A stretch of DNA of 64,000 nucleotides from Minisyncoccota bacterium (GCA_036399335.1 DASWNF010000009.1:20625-84624); one strand, 5' to 3'. Shown: positions 6,938 through 33,141, counted from the first letter of the stretch. Translations and numbers: made by a program. The notes: generated from the sequence alone by a model not told the origin.

Positions 6938-7047
6938 GGACTATCCCCACCTGGCGGGCGTTCAGGTTAACCTCATCATTAGGGAGCTATACTTAGCCTA
7001 ATGATAGGGCTTAGCCCATATCAGTACTTATCACGTTAACCACACTT

Positions 7048-23794: not shown

Positions 23795-23855
23795 CGCTTG
23801 ACAATATAGGGACAGCATGCCATGATAGTCCTGGCACATAACAGGAGGAAGCCAC

Positions 23856-24086
23856 ATGGACCAGGTTGCCGAACGCCCCCGGAAGATTCTGACCCTTGCG
23901 ACGCCGCGCCAGATCGCGCCCGTCACTCCCATGACCCTGACCCCGCGCATCGACGCGCCGACGCCCTGCCGCGCATCCTGCAGCAGGGAATCCGCACCGC
24001 CGCGCCCGGCCCGCCCGCCTGCAGGCTCTTTATCGCTCGACAACCGGCAGCTGATGCGGCTCAGGGTCCGTCCCCGTCGCCGCTGA
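23856..24086 (+). CDS. possible small Pro/Arg-rich protein (low complexity; uncertain)
   Basis: Canonical AGGAGG Shine-Dalgarno 7 nt upstream of the ATG, but the composition is low-complexity. Confidence 0.2.
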   Translation: MDQVAERPRKILTLATPRQIAPVTPMTLTPRIDAPTPCRASCSRESAPPRPARPPAGSLSLDNRQLMRLRVRPRRR

Positions 24087-24109
24087 TCTGAAACCATATT
24101 CATGGAAAG

Positions 24110-24137
24110 GGCGGCGCTAGAAATGGCGCCGCTTTTC
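24110..24137 (+). terminator. rho-independent terminator
   Basis: ggcggcgc-tagaaatg-gcgccgc followed by TTTTC. Confidence 0.6.
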
Positions 24138-24164
24138 ATATCTTGTGCTATAACAATTCGGACA

Positions 24165-24251
24165 GGAGACGTCGCATAGTGGTCTAGTGCACCGCCTTGG
24201 AAAGGCGGCAGACTCGAAAGGGTCTCGAGAGTTCGAATCTCTCCGTCTCCG
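24165..24251 (+). tRNA. tRNA-Ser (anticodon GGA), long variable arm; CCA not encoded
   Basis: Acceptor GGAGACG/CGTCTCC, anticodon stem CCGCC/GGCGG with loop TTGGAAA, long variable arm, T-loop GTTCGAATC. Confidence 0.9.
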
Positions 24252-24267
24252 CCTGATTATTTTCTTA

Positions 24268-25311
24268 TCACCCTAGCCAGAACCAAAACTTGTTTTTGAG
24301 GTCTCGGCCAAGCTTGTACGCGTTTGCGTGAGACAACACGCCTAGATACGAGCGCAGCGATGCTTCAAGGCGATCTTTTCCCATCTGACCCTGCTTATGC
24401 TCCCTGACCCTGCTTTCCAGCTTCCTGAATATACGGCTCTTTGTCCTGGCCCTCGGGAGTATGCAGTGGGGAAGGACGACGTATCCAAGAAAGTCCACAC
24501 CCTGTCCGTATTTTCGTATGTCTATTTTGTTTGGGTGAAGAACAAGCTCCAAGCGCTCGCCCAGGAATTCCTCAATCTGTGGAATAAGCGCCTCCAAGTA
24601 GCCTTTGTCGCGCGACACGATAATAAAATCGTCTGTATATCTTGCGTAGTGCTTTACGCGCAACGCGTGTTTCATAAACTGATCAAACTCGTTCATATAA
24701 ATGTTTGCGAACAACTGCGACGTCAGGTTGCCGATAGGGATACCGGCATGCTTAAGGTGGCTCTGTCCCACAGCAAAGCTGCCTACAATCTCTCGCATGA
24801 GCCACATGACGTCACGATCTACAATTCGTCGCTCCAGTATTTCAAGCAGGACGCCGTGGTCGACAGAGTCGAAGAACTTCCGAACGTCGCACTTAAGCGC
24901 GTAACAGGTTCTTGTATTGTTCCGGCTTTCGGAACGGAGCATCTTGGCTATGGCTTCTACGCCTTTATGGGCACCTTTGCCAATGCGGCACGAGAAGGAG
25001 GTGGCTATAAAGCTCGGCTCGAATATGGGATTCAGGACGGCAAAAACGACGTGGTGAAGCACGCGATCTCTGACTGTCGCTTTACTAATCTCTCGGAGTT
25101 TCGGATCGGTGATGCGAAAGCCCGCGTACTCCTGATGCCGATACGTTTTGTCGCGCAAGTCGCGCTGGAGCTTGAAAATGTTCTTCTCAAGCTCCTTCTC
25201 GAAGCGAAGCACATCAAGTTTATTCCGTTTGCCTTTCTTAAAGCGGTCCCACGCCGAAAACAACGCCTCTGCCGAGACAATCTTTTCAAACAATCGCTCA
25301 TGCTGCTCCAT
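24268..25311 (-). CDS. diversity-generating retroelement (DGR) reverse transcriptase
   Basis: RT motifs including IPIGNLTSQLFANIYMNEFD (the DGR-type [IV]GxxxSQ signature) and YTDDF (YxDD), ~350 aa. The N-terminus LFEKIVSAEALFSAWDRFKKGKRNK is typical of DGR RTs. Confidence 0.9.
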   Translation of the reverse strand: MEQHERLFEKIVSAEALFSAWDRFKKGKRNKLDVLRFEKELEKNIFKLQRDLRDKTYRHQEYAGFRITDPKLREISKATVRDRVLHHVVFAVLNPIFEPSFIATSFSCRIGKGAHKGVEAIAKMLRSESRNNTRTCYALKCDVRKFFDSVDHGVLLEILERRIVDRDVMWLMREIVGSFAVGQSHLKHAGIPIGNLTSQLFANIYMNEFDQFMKHALRVKHYARYTDDFIIVSRDKGYLEALIPQIEEFLGERLELVLHPNKIDIRKYGQGVDFLGYVVLPHCILPRARTKSRIFRKLESRVREHKQGQMGKDRLEASLRSYLGVLSHANAYKLGRDLKNKFWFWLG

Positions 25312-25313
25312 AT

Positions 25314-25664
25314 ATGAATGAGGTTGATATACCGATTCTAAAGAAGTCCTATGACTTGTACCGAACTTTTCATGAGTACCGGAAGGTTGTGCCGAAACAA
25401 GACCGTTTTACTATCTTCGAGCGCAGCGAGAACGTGATGCTTGATCTCATCGAGTGCCTCTTGTCGGCCGGGTACGGCGATAAACAAGGTAAGCGCCCGA
25501 TTCTTGAGCGCGCGAGCATAAAATTGAATGTGCTTCGCTTCTTTATCCGGCTCATGAAGGAAACAAAGTCTCTAGATAATAAGAAGTATGTGGTTCTTCA
25601 GGAGATGATCGACGAGATCGGCAGGATGCTAGGAGGGTGGACGCGCTCACTTGAGTCCCGATAA
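25314..25664 (+). CDS. avd: DGR accessory variability determinant Avd (four-helix-bundle protein)
   Basis: 116 aa. IKLNVLRFFIRLMKE ... EIGRMLGGW matches the conserved Avd helices (compare bAvd LAMLRFWLRFL ... EVGRILGSW). Confidence 0.85.
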   Translation: MNEVDIPILKKSYDLYRTFHEYRKVVPKQDRFTIFERSENVMLDLIECLLSAGYGDKQGKRPILERASIKLNVLRFFIRLMKETKSLDNKKYVVLQEMIDEIGRMLGGWTRSLESR

Positions 25665-25694
25665 GCAAAGAGGCGTCGTACGACGCCTCTTTGC
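25665..25694. terminator. perfect palindromic hairpin between avd and TR
   Basis: gcaaagaggcgtcgta|cgacgcctctttgc. Confidence 0.65.
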
Positions 25695-25709
25695 TCTAGC
25701 GAGGAGCGA

Positions 25710-25838
25710 CTTCGGGACGAACCCGGAGGCAGAACCGTAGTTCTCGTTGGCGTTGTCGATCCAGTTCGCGTTGAACTTAACCTTGTCGTCGTTGAAGTTG
25801 AAGATCGGGGCGTTCGAGAAGTCGCCATCGGCGTCCGG
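25710..25838 (-). repeat. DGR template repeat (TR); sense strand is the minus strand
   Basis: The reverse complement matches VR at 27068-27197 except at 15 positions. All 15 are adenines in TR and other bases in VR. Confidence 0.9.
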
Positions 25839-26327
25839 CTAATTGCCTTCACCCATCCATGTCACCGAAGCTCGAAGCCTTACGGCATCTGGCCCCTGAA
25901 TTTAATCCGACGACGCCCGCGCGGCTCGTCTTGGGTGGAGGCAAGCAGTATCTCCTCGCTACGACGCGCTCCCGGAAGCCGTGGCCTTCGGGACTCTGGC
26001 CGTCTTCTCGCAAAGAGAAAGAGTTCGGCGACGGCTTTCCTTGAAAGGCCGTACACGAGCCTAGACTCATGGGGAAGTATAGCAATACAGCTGAGCTGCT
26101 TATGCTTAGAATCCACCACAGCGTTTCCTTGACGAGTTAGGCTATATATAGCATGATAGAGCAGGAACCTTGATAATCAGGATCACTCCATGAGGCGAGC
26201 TTTTTACGGCTTATTTCCAGCTTTACTGGACTCTTTTACAATGGTCTTTAGACCTAGGCCGTAAACAGCTCGCCTCATGGGAGGTCAAGCCGCAAGTCCG
26301 ACGATTCGGGCGTAAGGAGCTAACGTC

Positions 26328-27200
26328 ATGGCGACGCTTACTCGTATCCCCTCGGCCTCTGATGGCCAGCTCAAGCAGATCAACCGTGTGGCCGCCGATG
26401 CGGCCGAAAAGGCGATCAATGAGTTCGGCCTCAACAAGGACCAGGCTCAGCGCGTTCACGGCAGCGCCGAGTTTGCCGCCCGCATCCGCGCGGCGGTGAC
26501 CACGGTCCTCACCGACGTAGCGATCACCGATCGCTACAAGGACGAGGAAGTCGAATCCACCTACGGCTATCTCTCGGGCTACAAGCCCAAGCCGTTCATG
26601 GAGCAGGTCGCGATTCTCCAGCAGCACTTCCCGAATCTCTCGCACACCGACCTGTCGGGGTTCGACATTCCGGACGGCGCGGAGGATACATTCGCAATTC
26701 CGCGCTTCGAGAAGATCGCGCCGACGTACGGCCAGGCGGTGGAAATCGTCCTCGGCCTGATCGGGCAGACCCGCGGGTTCTACAACTACCGGAAGGGCCA
26801 GACCGGTCCGACCTATCTGCGGCAGAGCGAGCGCAAGCTCGCCGCGCTCGAAGCCATCGGCGAGAAGCAGGAAGGCGACATCCTCGTCATCCCGGCGCAG
26901 TTCGGTATCCGCCATCGCGGCCGCTCGGTTCGCCGGGCGCGGGAGGTTTTTGATGGCGACGAGTTCGGCCTGGGTGCTTTCGAGGTCAGCATCATGCTCC
27001 TCACGCACCCGGAACGGCTCCAGCACTACGATGACCTCTGGATTGACTGCGCGGGCGACGAATTCGCCCCGGGCGCCGATGGCGGCTTCTCGGACGCCCC
27101 GTTCTTCTACTTCTACGGCGTCAAGGTTAAGTTCTTCGCGTACTGGATCGACTACGCCTACGAGTACTACGGTTCTGCCTCCGGGTTCGTCCCGCAGTAA
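26328..27200 (+). CDS. DGR target (variable) protein; C-terminal ~45 aa encoded by VR; no signal peptide or TM evident
   Basis: The 3' end carries VR. TR Asn-codon (AAC) positions are replaced by TAC/TTC/GGC etc. in VR. Confidence 0.85.
   Translation: MATLTRIPSASDGQLKQINRVAADAAEKAINEFGLNKDQAQRVHGSAEFAARIRAAVTTVLTDVAITDRYKDEEVESTYGYLSGYKPKPFMEQVAILQQHFPNLSHTDLSGFDIPDGAEDTFAIPRFEKIAPTYGQAVEIVLGLIGQTRGFYNYRKGQTGPTYLRQSERKLAALEAIGEKQEGDILVIPAQFGIRHRGRSVRRAREVFDGDEFGLGAFEVSIMLLTHPERLQHYDDLWIDCAGDEFAPGADGGFSDAPFFYFYGVKVKFFAYWIDYAYEYYGSASGFVPQ
27068..27197 (+). repeat. DGR variable repeat (VR)
   Basis: Base-by-base alignment with the TR reverse complement: 15 of 15 mismatches are TR-A to VR-N. Non-A positions are identical. 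Confidence 0.9.
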
Positions 27201-27259
27201 TCCTCGCGTCTTGAGTCCTTGAATCTTTTGTATCCTTGATCCTTGGGCTCGAAATTTTT

Positions 27260-27291
27260 GGGACCATCCGCGCATATCTGCGGATGGTCCC
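27260..27291 (+). promoter_or_regulatory. 12-bp-stem hairpin downstream of VR (DGR-associated hairpin/cruciform candidate)
   Basis: gggaccatccgc-gcatatct-gcggatggtccc, 60 bp after the VR end. Confidence 0.6.
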
Positions 27292-27467
27292 AACTCTTTA
27301 TATGTTGGATAGGACATCACGCGTAAGGGTGAGCTCATATGAGGCCACTTTCAACAGACTCAGATGTGGGATTAGGACCTTAATGGACGAGCTTACGTGC
27401 TAATCTGTTCTTATTGAATATGGCGGCCTAAGCCGCTCCTCAGGCATAACCCTAAATCGCCACGCAT

Positions 27468-32795: not shown

Positions 32796-32803
32796 CATAT
32801 ATT

Positions 32804-33141
32804 GTGGACCGGCCCGATAAGCCGAATTCTGTCCGGGGCCGAAGCCCCTAGGACGGTCATCTATCTGGGATGGCTGTTACCAGCCACCTCGAGCGGCGCT
32901 CCAGGTCAAGCCTGGCTCGGCCTTGCACCGGGGTAAGGATTTAGCCGTTTCAGCCCGGGATCGCTCCGGGGACGCTCTCAGGGAGAGCACCTATCCTTTC
33001 GGAATCGGTCGTTTCTGTTCGCACCTCGTAGTTCGCACTAGGCGGGCGTTACCCGCTACCTTGCTGCGCTCTTCCGAGCGCCGGTGTTCGGACTTTCCTC
33101 TAGGGCCGGAGCCCCAGCGACCGTCTAGACCGGTCCGGCAG
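32804..33141 (-). ncRNA. rnpB: RNase P RNA (bacterial type A)
   Basis: Minus strand reads GAGGAAAGUCCGAAC (P4 5' strand), GGUAACGCCCG, AACAGAAACGACCG, and ACAGAAUUCGGCUUAUCGGGCCGGUCC (P4 3' strand plus P1). GG to AA and CC to UU covary in P4. P1 pairs the two ends. Confidence 0.85.

Follow-up and report, generated by a model that had tools for sequence, protein, structure and literature searches.

A CPR-type DGR in a Patescibacterial genome with a conserved structured leader before its template repeat

The locus considered here lies in a 64-kb window (the whole stretch of DNA that was analysed, along which all positions are counted) and carries a reverse transcriptase (RT) gene, an avd gene and a TR/VR repeat pair, with the VR in a target gene on the opposite strand (Table 1). 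At the gene level the cassette is a complete, intact-looking and ordinary CPR-type DGR, and very probably the best explanation of the locus as a whole is a chromosomal CPR-type DGR of architecture B3, TR-(avd)-RT, in a Candidatus Paceibacterota genome, working through the RNA mechanism proposed below. The Patescibacterial host is indicated by an identical protein annotated in a Candidatus Paceibacterota MAG. Its template, however, appears to sit in a separate RNA gene, with a conserved structured "helper" before the template and not behind it as in the well-studied phage system.

Table 1. Features of the DGR locus and its surroundings, in window coordinates.
Feature	Position	Strand	Basis or remark
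tRNA-Ser(GGA)	24165..24253	+	ARAGORN; Rfam tRNA 56.6 bits; neighbour, not a functional DGR part
DGR reverse transcriptase, 347 aa	24268..25311	-	Pfam RVT_1 4.4e-23; PHROG 1423 1.4e-118; PDB 8ub7_A
avd, 116 aa	25314..25664	+	NCBIfam DivGenRetAVD; Pfam bAvd; PHROG 3206 'Avd protein of DGR'
Palindrome/hairpin, perfect 16+16 nt	25664..25695	.	Inverted repeat; just 3' of TR, at avd stop codon
Post-TR strand of putative long-range helix H6, AGUCGCUCCUC	25701..25711	-	Inverted repeat; predicted to pair with leader 25957-25947
TR	25709..25838	- (sense strand)	TR/VR alignment; fixed A/C boundary at 25712
Structured 5' leader of the predicted TR RNA	25839..26070	-	Comparative alignment and covariation
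Extended -10-like box, TGCTATACT	26076..26084	-	Family consensus TTTGATATAAT; alignment columns 5-16
Sigma-70-like promoter candidate, target gene	26129..26157	+	TTGACG-17-CATGAT; consensus scan, 9/12 matches
Conserved structured target 5' UTR	26188..26309	+	Inverted repeat; compensatory changes
DGR target gene, 290 aa	26328..27200	+	Helical N-terminus, alpha/beta core, C-terminal C-type-lectin-like domain
VR	27069..27198	+	TR/VR alignment; final 43 codons of target
Octamer array, ~4.5 units (CTTGAATC)	27210..27245	+	TRF period 8; just past VR and stop codon
Terminator-like hairpin, target gene	27258..27293	+	15-bp stem, then CTCTTTATAT

The RT carries both motifs named in the original prediction, IGNLTSQ at residues 193-199 and YTDD at residues 225-228, and is of the DGR type, an assignment made by motifs, profile scores and PDB sequence match: among solved structures the Bordetella phage DGR RT comes nearest (8ub7_A; 150 bits, 9.7e-43), while the best group II intron RT reaches 82 bits. 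We take entry 8ub7 to be the bRT-Avd complex because it also includes a 290-aa chain named 'Avd'. The neighbouring gene is indeed an avd, scoring 84.1 bits with the NCBIfam model (curated cut-off 80) and 64.6 bits with Pfam bAvd (cut-off 40; 1.3e-17), and its start codon and that of the RT are divergent and 2 bp apart, as had been described. The best NCBIfam match of the RT is group_II_RT_mat, as might be found if the RT came from a group II intron, a retron or a defence system and the adjacent repeat were a coincidence. We regard such an origin as extremely improbable, as this match (156.9 bits) is far under the cut-off of 300 and tops the list because NCBIfam is without a DGR-RT model, while the retron and Drt models are further under their cut-offs still (Retron St85, 53.5 bits against 235). 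The bRT leads the solved relatives by 68 bits, and it is accompanied by the adjacent Avd gene and by an adenine-only TR/VR pattern (P = 3e-11); an Rfam search found neither intron nor retron RNA at the locus.

The TR/VR match reported earlier is real, though its coordinates were off by one base: the best ungapped alignment places the reverse complement of 25838..25709 against 27069..27198, with 15 mismatches over 130 nt. All 15 fall among the 32 TR adenines and none of the 98 non-adenine positions differs, in agreement with the adenine specificity that had been claimed (P = 3.3e-11 for 15 random mismatches all landing on A), and when 37 loci are pooled, 642 of 662 TR/VR mismatches are at TR adenines. 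The claim that the changes affect AAC codons is correct for nine of the 15, which lie in eight such codons (becoming GAC, TAC in six cases and TTC), with the remainder elsewhere; GGC was wrongly derived from AAC, as both GGC and GTC come from GAC, GCG arises nowhere, and TTC in the VR has also been derived from ATC. The last mismatch (TR 25712 A, VR 27195 C; AAG to CAG) shows the same two bases, TR A and VR C, in 37/37 related loci, and by this comparison it appears to be a fixed IMH-like boundary and not a product of random mutagenesis. Fourteen of the 15 mismatches would therefore reflect mutagenesis (VR sites 27073, 27085, 27093, 27102, 27108, 27114, 27118, 27121, 27135, 27136, 27141, 27153, 27159 and 27165), followed by an invariant, G+C-rich IMH-like 3' part (27166-27194) which ends at the boundary C. 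The nearest hairpin after this block is terminator-like and lies 58 nt beyond the stop codon, with the octamer array in between; the array is kept in the target family, where a spacing of 7-9 nt dominates across 79 loci. No further TR-like copies were found elsewhere in the window.

The VR occupies the 3' end of the target gene and encodes part of a lectin-fold domain. Structure prediction for the C-terminus of the target, one of the checks proposed with the original prediction, returned a distant C-type-lectin/FGE-like fold for the C-terminal half (pLDDT 97). The protein itself had no matches in Pfam, NCBIfam, PHROG or PDB, and a Foldseek search found nothing. It was rightly described as being without a signal peptide or TM segment, having no hydrophobic N-terminus and a maximum Kyte-Doolittle 19-residue mean of 1.15, and the same holds for the family to which it belongs, which is large (2,049 representatives at 50% identity) and found in Patescibacteria. 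The targets of CPR DGR clade 2 also have no recognisable TM segment or conserved domain, and the earlier suggestion of an intracellular target agrees with a question that has already been raised for them (Roux et al. 2021, PMC8144416). Upstream of the gene, the sigma-70-like sequence is a weak promoter candidate, and a similar CTTGACA...TATACT is present at the equivalent place in other inverted loci. The 5' UTR contains a long hairpin (arms 26188-26213 and 26255-26280) and a small hairpin (26298-26309), next to which is the SD sequence AAGGAG (26314-26319); it has 20 pairs, 11 with compensatory changes, and the hairpin is common to direct, inverted and DGR-less loci.

We compared the window with 81 related loci, and in this survey the layout, which had been called atypical, turned out to be the norm for the lineage. 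Wu et al. 2018 (PMC5758913) give architecture B3 as that of 90% of CPR DGRs, and the TR-(avd)-RT order with avd on the reverse strand was found in 38/38 loci with an A-biased TR, window included. All of these have the same order whichever way the target points, this being direct in 28 loci and inverted in ten, the window among the latter. The flip is seen in 10-12 of ~40 related loci (about a quarter) and in at least two RT clades, and we read it as a clade-level rearrangement of the target relative to the RNA/avd/RT module that retrohoming in trans would tolerate. The cassette adjoins tRNA-Ser(GGA) as noted earlier, at 14 nt from the RT stop codon. However, a tRNA lies within 400 nt of the RT end in only ~5/31 related loci, the tRNAs differ, and no integrase was found near the tRNA-adjacent related loci; the adjacency is therefore uninformative on mobility.

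Activity is seen in the family, though not in the window genome: in a near-clonal relative (P0104 cluster), 14 near-identical proteins have at least four VR haplotypes and an almost invariant body. The window cassette could still be a recently inactivated relic, in which the TR/VR pattern stems from past retrohoming and the target is no longer diversified in the population. Adenine-only mismatches persist in relatives with a deleted or truncated RT (L001/L002, L059, L066 and L078), including 17/17 mismatches in L002 from which the RT has been lost, so the pattern can outlive the machinery; the protein collection has one sequence only of the window target, whose 90% cluster has a single member, and roughly one target homolog in two is without a DGR within 6 kb. 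We nevertheless consider a relic unlikely, given an RT that is full length with its catalytic motifs, an Avd that is full length and above its curated cut-off, leader helices that are all intact in the window, and zero non-A differences over 130 nt.

The ~230 nt before the TR make up the leader, a structured RNA with strong covariation that is conserved across 38 loci to a greater degree than the proteins. RNAalifold recovers 65 pairs, 48 with compensatory changes, and paired cells amount to 92.4% (43-51% in slid controls), with 0/500 shuffles reaching the observed values. Reading 5' to 3', helices P1-P5 are followed by the H6 5' strand (25957-25947), a GC linker (25946-25945), the P7 5' strand (25944-25933), P8 (25929-25910), an A-rich single strand (25909-25897), P9/P10 (25896-25867) and the P7 3' strand (25854-25843), which stops 4 nt short of the TR. 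Of all parts of the RNA, P7 covaries most strongly (12 bp, 98.9% paired, 9/12 pairs covarying), and the U-G-C-U-U around and including the GC linker is invariant in 37/37 loci. No conserved ORF was found in the leader. Searched against Rfam 15 it belonged to no family, RT-7 (RF03028) scoring 22.9 bits against a gathering score of 116.8, and neither RT-10 nor any other Rfam RT motif was found at the window. Leaders of eight related loci gave nothing in Rfam at E<=1, and 12 loci gave nothing at gathering thresholds.

It might be argued that this region is not DGR RNA at all and is instead either an sRNA in its own right or regulatory sequence of the neighbouring target gene, since in direct loci it comes directly after that gene. 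We find this very unlikely. The strand of the leader and its fixed distance from the TR are kept while the target is flipped in a quarter of loci, and the target owns a separate conserved 5' UTR. The P7 3' strand abuts the limit of TR/VR homology, the 5' end of which is within 5 nt of it in 35/37 loci, and in metagenomes 7/7 full leaders adjoin a target, together with avd and RT on contigs that are long enough.

A leader belonging to the DGR RNA would also reach across the TR. Its long-range helix, H6, has 11 bp formed with the segment just 3' of the TR, and appears in both the MFE and centroid folds of the window RNA (z=-3.6). Comparative support for H6 is moderate: it is 77% paired in 37 loci against 34-65% in slid controls, which reach such values because the strands are purine-rich and pyrimidine-rich, and 37/500 shuffles have at least as many covarying pairs as the real alignment, the proximal base pairs being invariant and therefore uninformative. 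Past the TR come ~14 nt and a 32-nt hairpin, and after these avd in antisense. The hairpin is the perfect palindrome of the original prediction, now extended to 25664-25695, and its structure is kept with compensatory changes in 37 loci together with a following T-run (helices 11/12). It is likely to be a bidirectional terminator serving both the TR RNA and avd, and from its position, which is that of the Avd-binding stem-loop of BPP-1 (Sp3-33), it may also bind Avd. At the other end, the extended -10-like box is the presumed promoter of the TR RNA.

A BPP-1-type RNA layout (avd segment-TR-Sp) was considered and rejected, as what follows the TR is the short segment, hairpin and antisense avd just described. 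In the predicted structure, one continuous strand of the leader first pairs with the sequence that immediately follows the TR, runs on through the invariant GC and next pairs with the sequence that immediately precedes the TR. The order, template:primer duplex and then cPRT-stop duplex, is that of BPP-1, and the TR RNA therefore looks like a circular permutation of the BPP-1 DGR RNA. In the mechanism we propose, the TR would be transcribed off the minus strand as a stand-alone RNA of ~410 nt (~26070 to ~25662), starting from its own extended -10 promoter and ending at the hairpin shared with avd, these ends being predictions, as is the priming. The 230-nt leader would take the role of the BPP-1 3' spacer (Sp): 25957-25947 with the 11 nt directly 3' of the TR would form the template:primer duplex, the invariant GC would be the counterpart of Sp G57-C58, and 25944-25933 with 25854-25843 would be the cPRT-stop duplex that sets the cDNA 5' limit, after which come, in BPP-1 order, a stem-loop, the single strand with its conserved A-rich sequence and a long stem with interruptions. 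Cis-priming by RT-Avd near U25947 would start a cDNA copy of the TR, with bases put in at random opposite TR adenines, and synthesis would halt at P7. This cDNA would go on to replace the VR, which is 1.2 kb off on the other strand, recoding up to the 14 observed positions, mostly in AAC and GAC codons, on what is predicted to be the ligand-binding face of the lectin-fold domain.

A working DGR could also use its leader in other ways, for RNA stability, recruitment of RT/Avd or regulation, with priming from the post-TR hairpin region or from the 3'-OH of nicked RNA. The moderate covariation of H6 would allow this, and a nick-primed alternative has been put forward for BPP-1 (PMC5703328). In Handa et al., CPR DGRs, included in general terms, are given BPP-1-like elements downstream of the TR, which counts against the permuted model, and the Avd-binding stem-loops and stop duplexes were sought in no more than 40 nt before and 100 nt after the TR. 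In the window, however, the 40 nt before the TR have their pairing partner in the leader (P7) and not in downstream sequence, where there are only the ~14 nt, one hairpin and antisense avd, and the strand order, GC linker and following elements match Sp53-139 one for one. We judge priming of another kind rather unlikely and retain cis-priming from the leader as the preferred reading.

Among known systems, the closest are the CPR DGRs (architecture B3, PMC5758913; clade 2, PMC8144416), which have the same core order, opposite-strand avd, Patescibacterial host and chromosomal location, and the same type of target, in which the VR is C-terminal and neither a TM segment nor a Pfam domain can be recognised. 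There is no gene-level difference between these and the window DGR. We found no mention of a structured leader upstream of the TR or of the pairing scheme in the accessible CPR DGR literature.

The Treponema denticola TvpA and other FGE-type lectin-fold targets have no sequence similarity to the window target, which differs in being without a lipoprotein or signal sequence and in having two parts that find no structural match, a basic motif that is conserved, RHRGRSVRRARE, and the alpha/beta half at the N-terminus. In retron msr-msd RNA, the priming nucleotide is 5' of the template, beside a duplex formed by an upstream strand and the 3' end of the template, and the window RNA as modelled here would share this topology. 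Retrons make a satellite msDNA product, have a role in defence and are not known to carry out mutagenic homing; in RT family, product and role they are unrelated to the window DGR, the RT of which is far under the retron cut-offs.

Compared with BPP-1 (mtd-avd-TR-Sp-brt), the window locus differs in that the phage has all its parts on one strand with Sp 3' of the TR, between TR and brt, whereas the window target is on the opposite strand; the BPP-1 priming position is an A and the putative one in the window RNA a U; and BPP-1 is without a counterpart of the extra ~110-nt 5' domain (P1-P5). The two have in common a homologous RT, an Avd, TR-to-VR transfer that is specific to adenines, and a target of C-type-lectin fold whose VR is C-terminal. 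From the BPP-1 sequence and element map, the phage order is primer strand, GC, stop-duplex strand, stem-loop, adenosines with single strand and long stem-loop, and the leader has the same order. The hallmark of two adjacent duplexes bracketing the TR through one continuous strand with a 2-nt linker thus appears to be present here in permuted form.

The cassette is almost certainly a DGR, and the original prediction of a complete element, with an RT, an Avd and a template repeat (TR) and variable repeat (VR) pair that differ only at adenines, was borne out in each of these parts. The RT matches Pfam RVT_1 (4.4e-23) and PHROG 1423 (1.4e-118), carries the motifs IGNLTSQ (aa 193) and YTDD (aa 225) that had been noticed earlier, and among solved structures is closest to 8ub7_A (9.7e-43, 150 bits), with group II intron RTs next at ~82 bits. 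PDB entry 8ub7 also holds a 290-aa 'Avd' chain which fits the Avd-Fae fusion used in the cryo-EM work on bRT-Avd-RNA, identifying chain A as the Bordetella phage DGR RT (bRT). The group II, retron and Drt models of NCBIfam, a collection from which a DGR-RT model is absent, score our RT far below their cut-offs. The Avd scores 84.1 bits against NCBIfam DivGenRetAVD (curated cut-off 80), and also matches Pfam bAvd and the PHROG 'Avd protein of DGR'. The divergent RT and avd promoters must be located within each other's coding sequence, and we note that the arms of a 21-nt inverted repeat (86% complementary), located in the 5' portion of the RT gene and in avd respectively, flank the head-to-head start codons and are possibly a regulatory site. 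The G+C content differs inside the cassette (RT 50.7%, avd 47.6% and target 63.1%, with 56.9% for the window), and high G+C explains a spurious 371-aa antisense ORF over the target and a 78-aa ORF over the leader, the structured RNA 5' of the TR.

Coordinates of features in the window and in related loci (L numbers)
Feature	Locus	Position	Strand
G+C-rich stretch upstream of tRNA-Ser	window	23800-24140	
Terminator-like hairpin in this stretch	window	24107-24136	
RT (347 aa)	window	24268-25311	minus
21-nt inverted repeat, arm in RT	window	25201-25221	
21-nt inverted repeat, arm in avd	window	25521-25541	
Avd (116 aa)	window	25314-25664	
Post-TR hairpin	window	25664-25695	
Template strand, AGUCGCUCCUC (putative)	window	25711-25701	minus
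TR	window	25838-25709	minus
Fixed TR/VR difference	window	25712 (TR), 27195 (VR)	
P7 (12 bp)	window	25944-25933 with 25854-25843	minus
P9/P10	window	25896-25867	minus
A-rich single strand (13 nt)	window	25909-25897	minus
P8	window	25929-25910	minus
GC linker	window	25946-25945	minus
Primer strand, GAGGAGAUACU (putative)	window	25957-25947	minus
Leader	window	26070-25839	minus
TR RNA gene (very probable)	window	~26070 to ~25662	minus
78-aa ORF over leader (rejected)	window	25849-26085	minus
-10-like box	window	26084-26076	minus
Target 5'-UTR element	window	26188-26319	plus
Long hairpin, arms	window	26188-26213, 26255-26280	plus
Small CCG-loop-CGG hairpin	window	26298-26309	plus
371-aa antisense ORF (spurious)	window	26223-27338	
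Target ORF (290 aa)	window	26328-27200	plus
VR	window	27069-27198	plus
Octamer array	window	27210-27245	plus
Hairpin downstream of target	window	27258-27293	
RNase P RNA, bacterial class A	window	32802-33136	minus
Decayed DGR	L001	7830-8322	
Decayed DGR	L002, L003, L016	7454-7648	
Decayed DGR	L059, L066, L078		
LOOT RNA (RF03000)	L006	5567-5696	
LOOT RNA (RF03000)	L010	1622-1751	
LOOT RNA (RF03000)	L008	7066-7185	
LOOT RNA (RF03000)	L012	7050-7178	
LOOT RNA (RF03000)	L021	7050-7172	
LOOT RNA (RF03000)	L011	3618-3738, 4295-4412	
DnaA-box-like terminator hairpin, downstream of target stop	L006	~6960-7000	
DnaA-box-like terminator hairpin, downstream of target stop	L008	~6960-7010	

The reverse complement of the TR aligns with the VR over 130 nt without gaps at 88% identity, so that the predicted repeat is real with its positions shifted by one base. 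When recomputed, all 15 mismatches fall on the 32 TR adenines and none of the 98 other bases differs (the chance of 15 random mismatches all falling on A is 3.3e-11), and in 37 related loci pooled together TR adenines hold 642 of 662 TR/VR mismatches. AAC codons were correctly named as targets and account for nine mismatches in eight codons (changed to GAC, TAC in six cases, and TTC), but the rest are found in GAC codons (four mismatches, giving GGC three times and GTC), ATC (giving TTC) and AAG (giving CAG), and the GCG codon that had been listed never arises. The last of these differences is non-random and of the IMH/IMH* type, fixed at the TR/VR boundary, with the TR reading CCG-AAG-U and the VR CCG-CAG in 37/37 related loci, which leaves 14 window sites that reflect mutagenesis. 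A scan of the rest of the genome with the TR had been proposed as a way of finding further VR copies; within the 64-kb window, BLAST with the TR returned the TR itself and the known VR only.

Natural VR diversification is seen in the target family, though in a relative rather than in the window population, as the 90% cluster of the window target consists of one sequence. The relative is the P0104 protein cluster (~55% identical to the window target), whose 14 sequences share at least 94% identity and differ at around six biallelic sites over residues 1–264, with at least four haplotypes and ~15 differing positions over residues 265–297. The A-only mismatch pattern outlives the enzyme, as decayed DGRs, whose RT is truncated or missing and whose avd is truncated, still have nearly all of their TR/VR mismatches at adenines. 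These include L002 and L003, where the RT is absent, avd is truncated and 17/17 mismatches are at adenines, and the pattern alone is therefore no proof of present activity.

The target protein has no sequence match in Pfam, NCBIfam, PHROG or PDB, and an identical sequence from a Candidatus Paceibacterota MAG carries the annotation 'hypothetical protein'. A 90%-clustered collection yielded more than 3,200 homologs, almost all 285–305 aa in length and from Patescibacteria/Parcubacteria MAGs, and a profile search of a 50%-clustered library recovered 2,049 representatives. In the family alignment the body is strongly conserved (including GWFAIPKW, QFGxRHRGRSVRRAREV, LLTHPER and DCAGDE), and variation is concentrated exactly at the positions templated by TR adenines. 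Four homologs of ~480 aa (P0003, P0004, P0007 and P0027) carry tandem duplications of the core domain, each half having a VR-like end. The suggestion that the target lacks a signal peptide and TM segment agrees with its hydropathy, where neither a signal-peptide-like N-terminus nor a TM-like stretch was found (maximum 1.15), and with the account by Roux et al. (PMC8144416) of CPR clade-2 targets as typically without TM or conserved domains (these authors left true non-membrane status open). Structure prediction gives a lectin-fold model at high confidence, and a Foldseek search of PDB with this model returned nothing at E<3. A model of this confidence for a family of >2,000 makes it easier to address the long-standing question of what these abundant and apparently non-secreted CPR targets bind.

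We compared 80 species-representative loci encoding target relatives, plus two found by exact look-up, and determined the positions of the target, TR, RT and Avd in each. The direct layout of 28 loci runs from target-VR through a spacer, the TR and avd (opposite strand) to the RT, with the TR as a direct repeat (starting 539 nt after the VR start in L001 and L002, the two direct loci measured), and in the inverted layout, which 10 loci share (the window among them), this spacer-TR-(avd)-RT module is retained with the target gene flipped (in two additional inverted loci the TR/VR are degraded). Pairwise BLAST of the window and L001 likewise found the spacer, TR, hairpin, avd, RT and tRNA-Ser to be collinear, with the target gene alone inverted. 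LOOT RNA (RF03000) adjoins the target gene in several relatives on the side opposite the DGR module, with none in the window, and in both layouts its orientation with respect to the RT is unchanged, indicating that the flip is confined to the target cassette. [quoted passage not shown] We rejected inversion of the target as a phase-variable switch, as orientation follows RT clades, flanking inverted repeats and a recombinase are absent, and VR/TR recombination is unable to turn the direct layout into the inverted one. Instead, the inverted loci form one clade of seven and a separate pair (the window and L055) in the RT NJ tree, which argues for rearrangement at the level of clades on two or more occasions.

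A tRNA lies near the RT end in ~5/31 loci, and with adjacency sporadic, the tRNAs differing and an integrase absent, we also rejected tRNA-Ser as an integration site. The stretch upstream of tRNA-Ser in the window is G+C-rich and has no family match; its ORFs, on both strands, are all Pro/Arg-rich and of low complexity, and it contains a terminator-like hairpin. RNase P RNA (132.6 bits) is found ~5.6 kb from the cassette, with tRNA-Gly, tRNA-Arg and tRNA-Phe beyond. It should be noted that contigs with a Patescibacteria-type target and DGR are also filed under Gammaproteobacteria (L018, L047, L059, L061, L074 and L079), Flavobacteriales (L065), Loktanella (L031), Bdellovibrionales (L075/L081) and Humimicrobiaceae (L016), and these are probably mis-binned or mis-labelled. 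Around 40 of the 80 loci (e.g. L013, L015, L020 and L026) lack an A-biased TR, an RT and an Avd within 6 kb of the target homolog, and such homologs may be former targets or may be served in trans by a DGR located elsewhere; many still keep the 5'-UTR hairpin and octamer array associated with the target gene.

The target 5' UTR contains a long hairpin (ATGAGGCGAGC...GCTCGCCTCAT) and then a small one followed by the Shine-Dalgarno AAGGAG. The long hairpin, to which Rfam 'mir-208' matches in this region are spurious hits, is found in direct, inverted and DGR-less loci and has 20 pairs with compensatory changes in 11 (the sequences were chosen by the arm motif, making arm conservation circular but not the covariation of the upper stem). 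A GAG(A/G)C copy of the 5' arm lies downstream, and the two change in step, suggestive of alternative pairing. Just 3' of the stop codon is an array of CTTGAATC-like octamers (TRF period 8, 4.5 copies); TTGAnTC-like repeats, mostly at 7–9 nt spacing, occur downstream of the target in nearly all 79 related loci, including those without a nearby TR, and are followed by the target terminator hairpin. The array's position is one that a DGR target-recognition element might occupy, and it could be such an element for retrohoming or a 3'-UTR binding platform. The terminator hairpin arms of relatives are often GGGTTATCCACA / TGTGGATAACCC, a pair of DnaA-box consensus sequences in inverted orientation, and the DnaA box TTATCCACA (≤1 mismatch) is ~12-fold enriched there (3.4 vs 0.29 per kb; 37/79 loci); the hairpin of the window lacks this consensus.

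The ~250–290 nt 5' of the TR on its sense strand are conserved across 38 loci to a degree exceeding that of the proteins. This region opens with a -10-like box (family consensus TTTGATATAAT; TGCTATACT in the window), and 3' of the TR every locus has ~14 conserved nt and then a G+C hairpin, a perfect palindrome in the window, with a T-run abutting the avd stop codon. No ORF in the leader is conserved across relatives, and we rejected the 78-aa ORF because stop-free stretches span 31–78 aa and the leaders differ in length by numbers of nucleotides not divisible by 3. RNAalifold predicted 65 pairs from 37 sequences, with compensatory double changes in 48; in a 73-pair structure 92.4% of cells are paired compared with 43–51% when partners are slid, and 53 pairs show double changes, values reached by 0/500 shuffles. 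No family in Rfam 15 matches the leader, and an RT-7 match in the window (22.9 bits) did not recur in eight relatives at E≤1 and is ascribed to chance. A metagenome scan using the near-invariant 14-mer box GGAGATACTGCTTG returned 120 stretches, mostly chance matches, and the full leader in seven, all of which adjoin a target homolog and, on contigs that extend far enough, avd and RT as well (the layout is inverted in two). The TR very probably belongs to a structured RNA gene of ~410 nt that stands alone, and useful co-transcription of TR and RT is impossible because avd lies antisense between them.

Tens of thousands of DGRs have been catalogued, and the window element is routine as a DGR, with a gene layout and kind of target already described for CPR bacteria. 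What is added here is a strongly covarying stand-alone TR RNA with a probably permuted Sp-like leader, a high-confidence lectin-fold model for a very large target family and two more conserved non-coding elements (the 5' UTR and octamer array). To our knowledge, DGR reverse transcription has a mechanistic model for a single phage element only, whose helper RNA comes after the template, and our comparisons suggest that the clade dominating CPR may build the same duplex geometry from a separately transcribed RNA preceding it. If true, the working of the largest cellular DGR clade would be defined by an RNA family that has gone unrecognised until now and has no entry in Rfam 15; the arrangement would also provide a natural test of essential (geometry) and incidental (connectivity) features of the DGR ribonucleoprotein, and a compact, separately expressed template RNA for targeted-mutagenesis engineering.

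We mapped the elements of the BPP-1 DGR RNA, in which the spacer RNA (Sp) is 3' of the TR, from the phage sequence and the cryo-EM study, and find that the order of elements along the leader is that along Sp. The BPP-1 primer strand Sp53-56 (GUCA; A56 primes) pairs with TR118-121 and has a U·C mismatch, and in the predicted counterpart of this template:primer duplex GAGGAGAUACU in the leader pairs with AGUCGCUCCUC, also with a U·C mismatch. The BPP-1 linker Sp57-58 (GC, of which G57 is required) resembles the leader GC, around which U-G-C-U-U is invariant in 37/37 sequences. The 11-bp cPRT-stop duplex (Sp59-70 with avd369-379, 8 nt upstream of the TR) has its counterpart in P7, 4 nt upstream, which is the best-supported helix (98.9% paired, 9/12 pairs covarying); the 5' limit of TR/VR homology is ≤5 nt from the P7 3' strand in 35/37 loci, as expected from a polymerisation stop there. 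The short stem-loop Sp71-78 is similar to P8, the A-minor adenosines and single-stranded thumb ring Sp79-94 to a conserved A-rich strand (family consensus CAnAUAAAAUUCA), and the long interrupted bRT-binding stem-loop Sp95-139 to P9/P10. The Avd-binding stem-loop Sp3-33 just 3' of the BPP-1 TR resembles the post-TR hairpin. The leader:post-TR helix (H6), which encloses the TR, forms in both the MFE and centroid folds of the window (z=-3.6) and has moderate comparative support, being 77% paired compared with 34–65% when slid and having 19 double-change cells compared with 7.9±2.3 in shuffles, with proximal pairs that never vary and a number of covarying pairs reached by 37/500 shuffles.

The simplest reading of these sequence and covariation data would be a circular permutation of the BPP-1 RNA, in which the RNA is opened in the loop that separates the primer strand from the Avd-binding stem-loop, the Sp 3' end is connected to the sequence preceding the TR, and ~110 nt (P1-P5) are gained as an additional 5' domain. 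We lean towards this permuted priming geometry for the window. According to the available text of Handa et al., CPR DGRs carry BPP-1-like elements, and the interval analysed was 40 nt upstream and 100 nt downstream of the TR; in the lineage studied here, such an interval would cover the 3' strand of P7, the post-TR hairpin and antisense avd, leaving the partner strands outside. There is perhaps slightly better than an even chance that CPR B3-type DGRs use a circularly permuted RNA, in which the equivalents of Sp53-139 are 5' of the template in a stand-alone ~410-nt gene and the Avd-binding-like hairpin alone stays 3'. With the primer strand 5' of the template, cis-priming would then be retron-like in topology.
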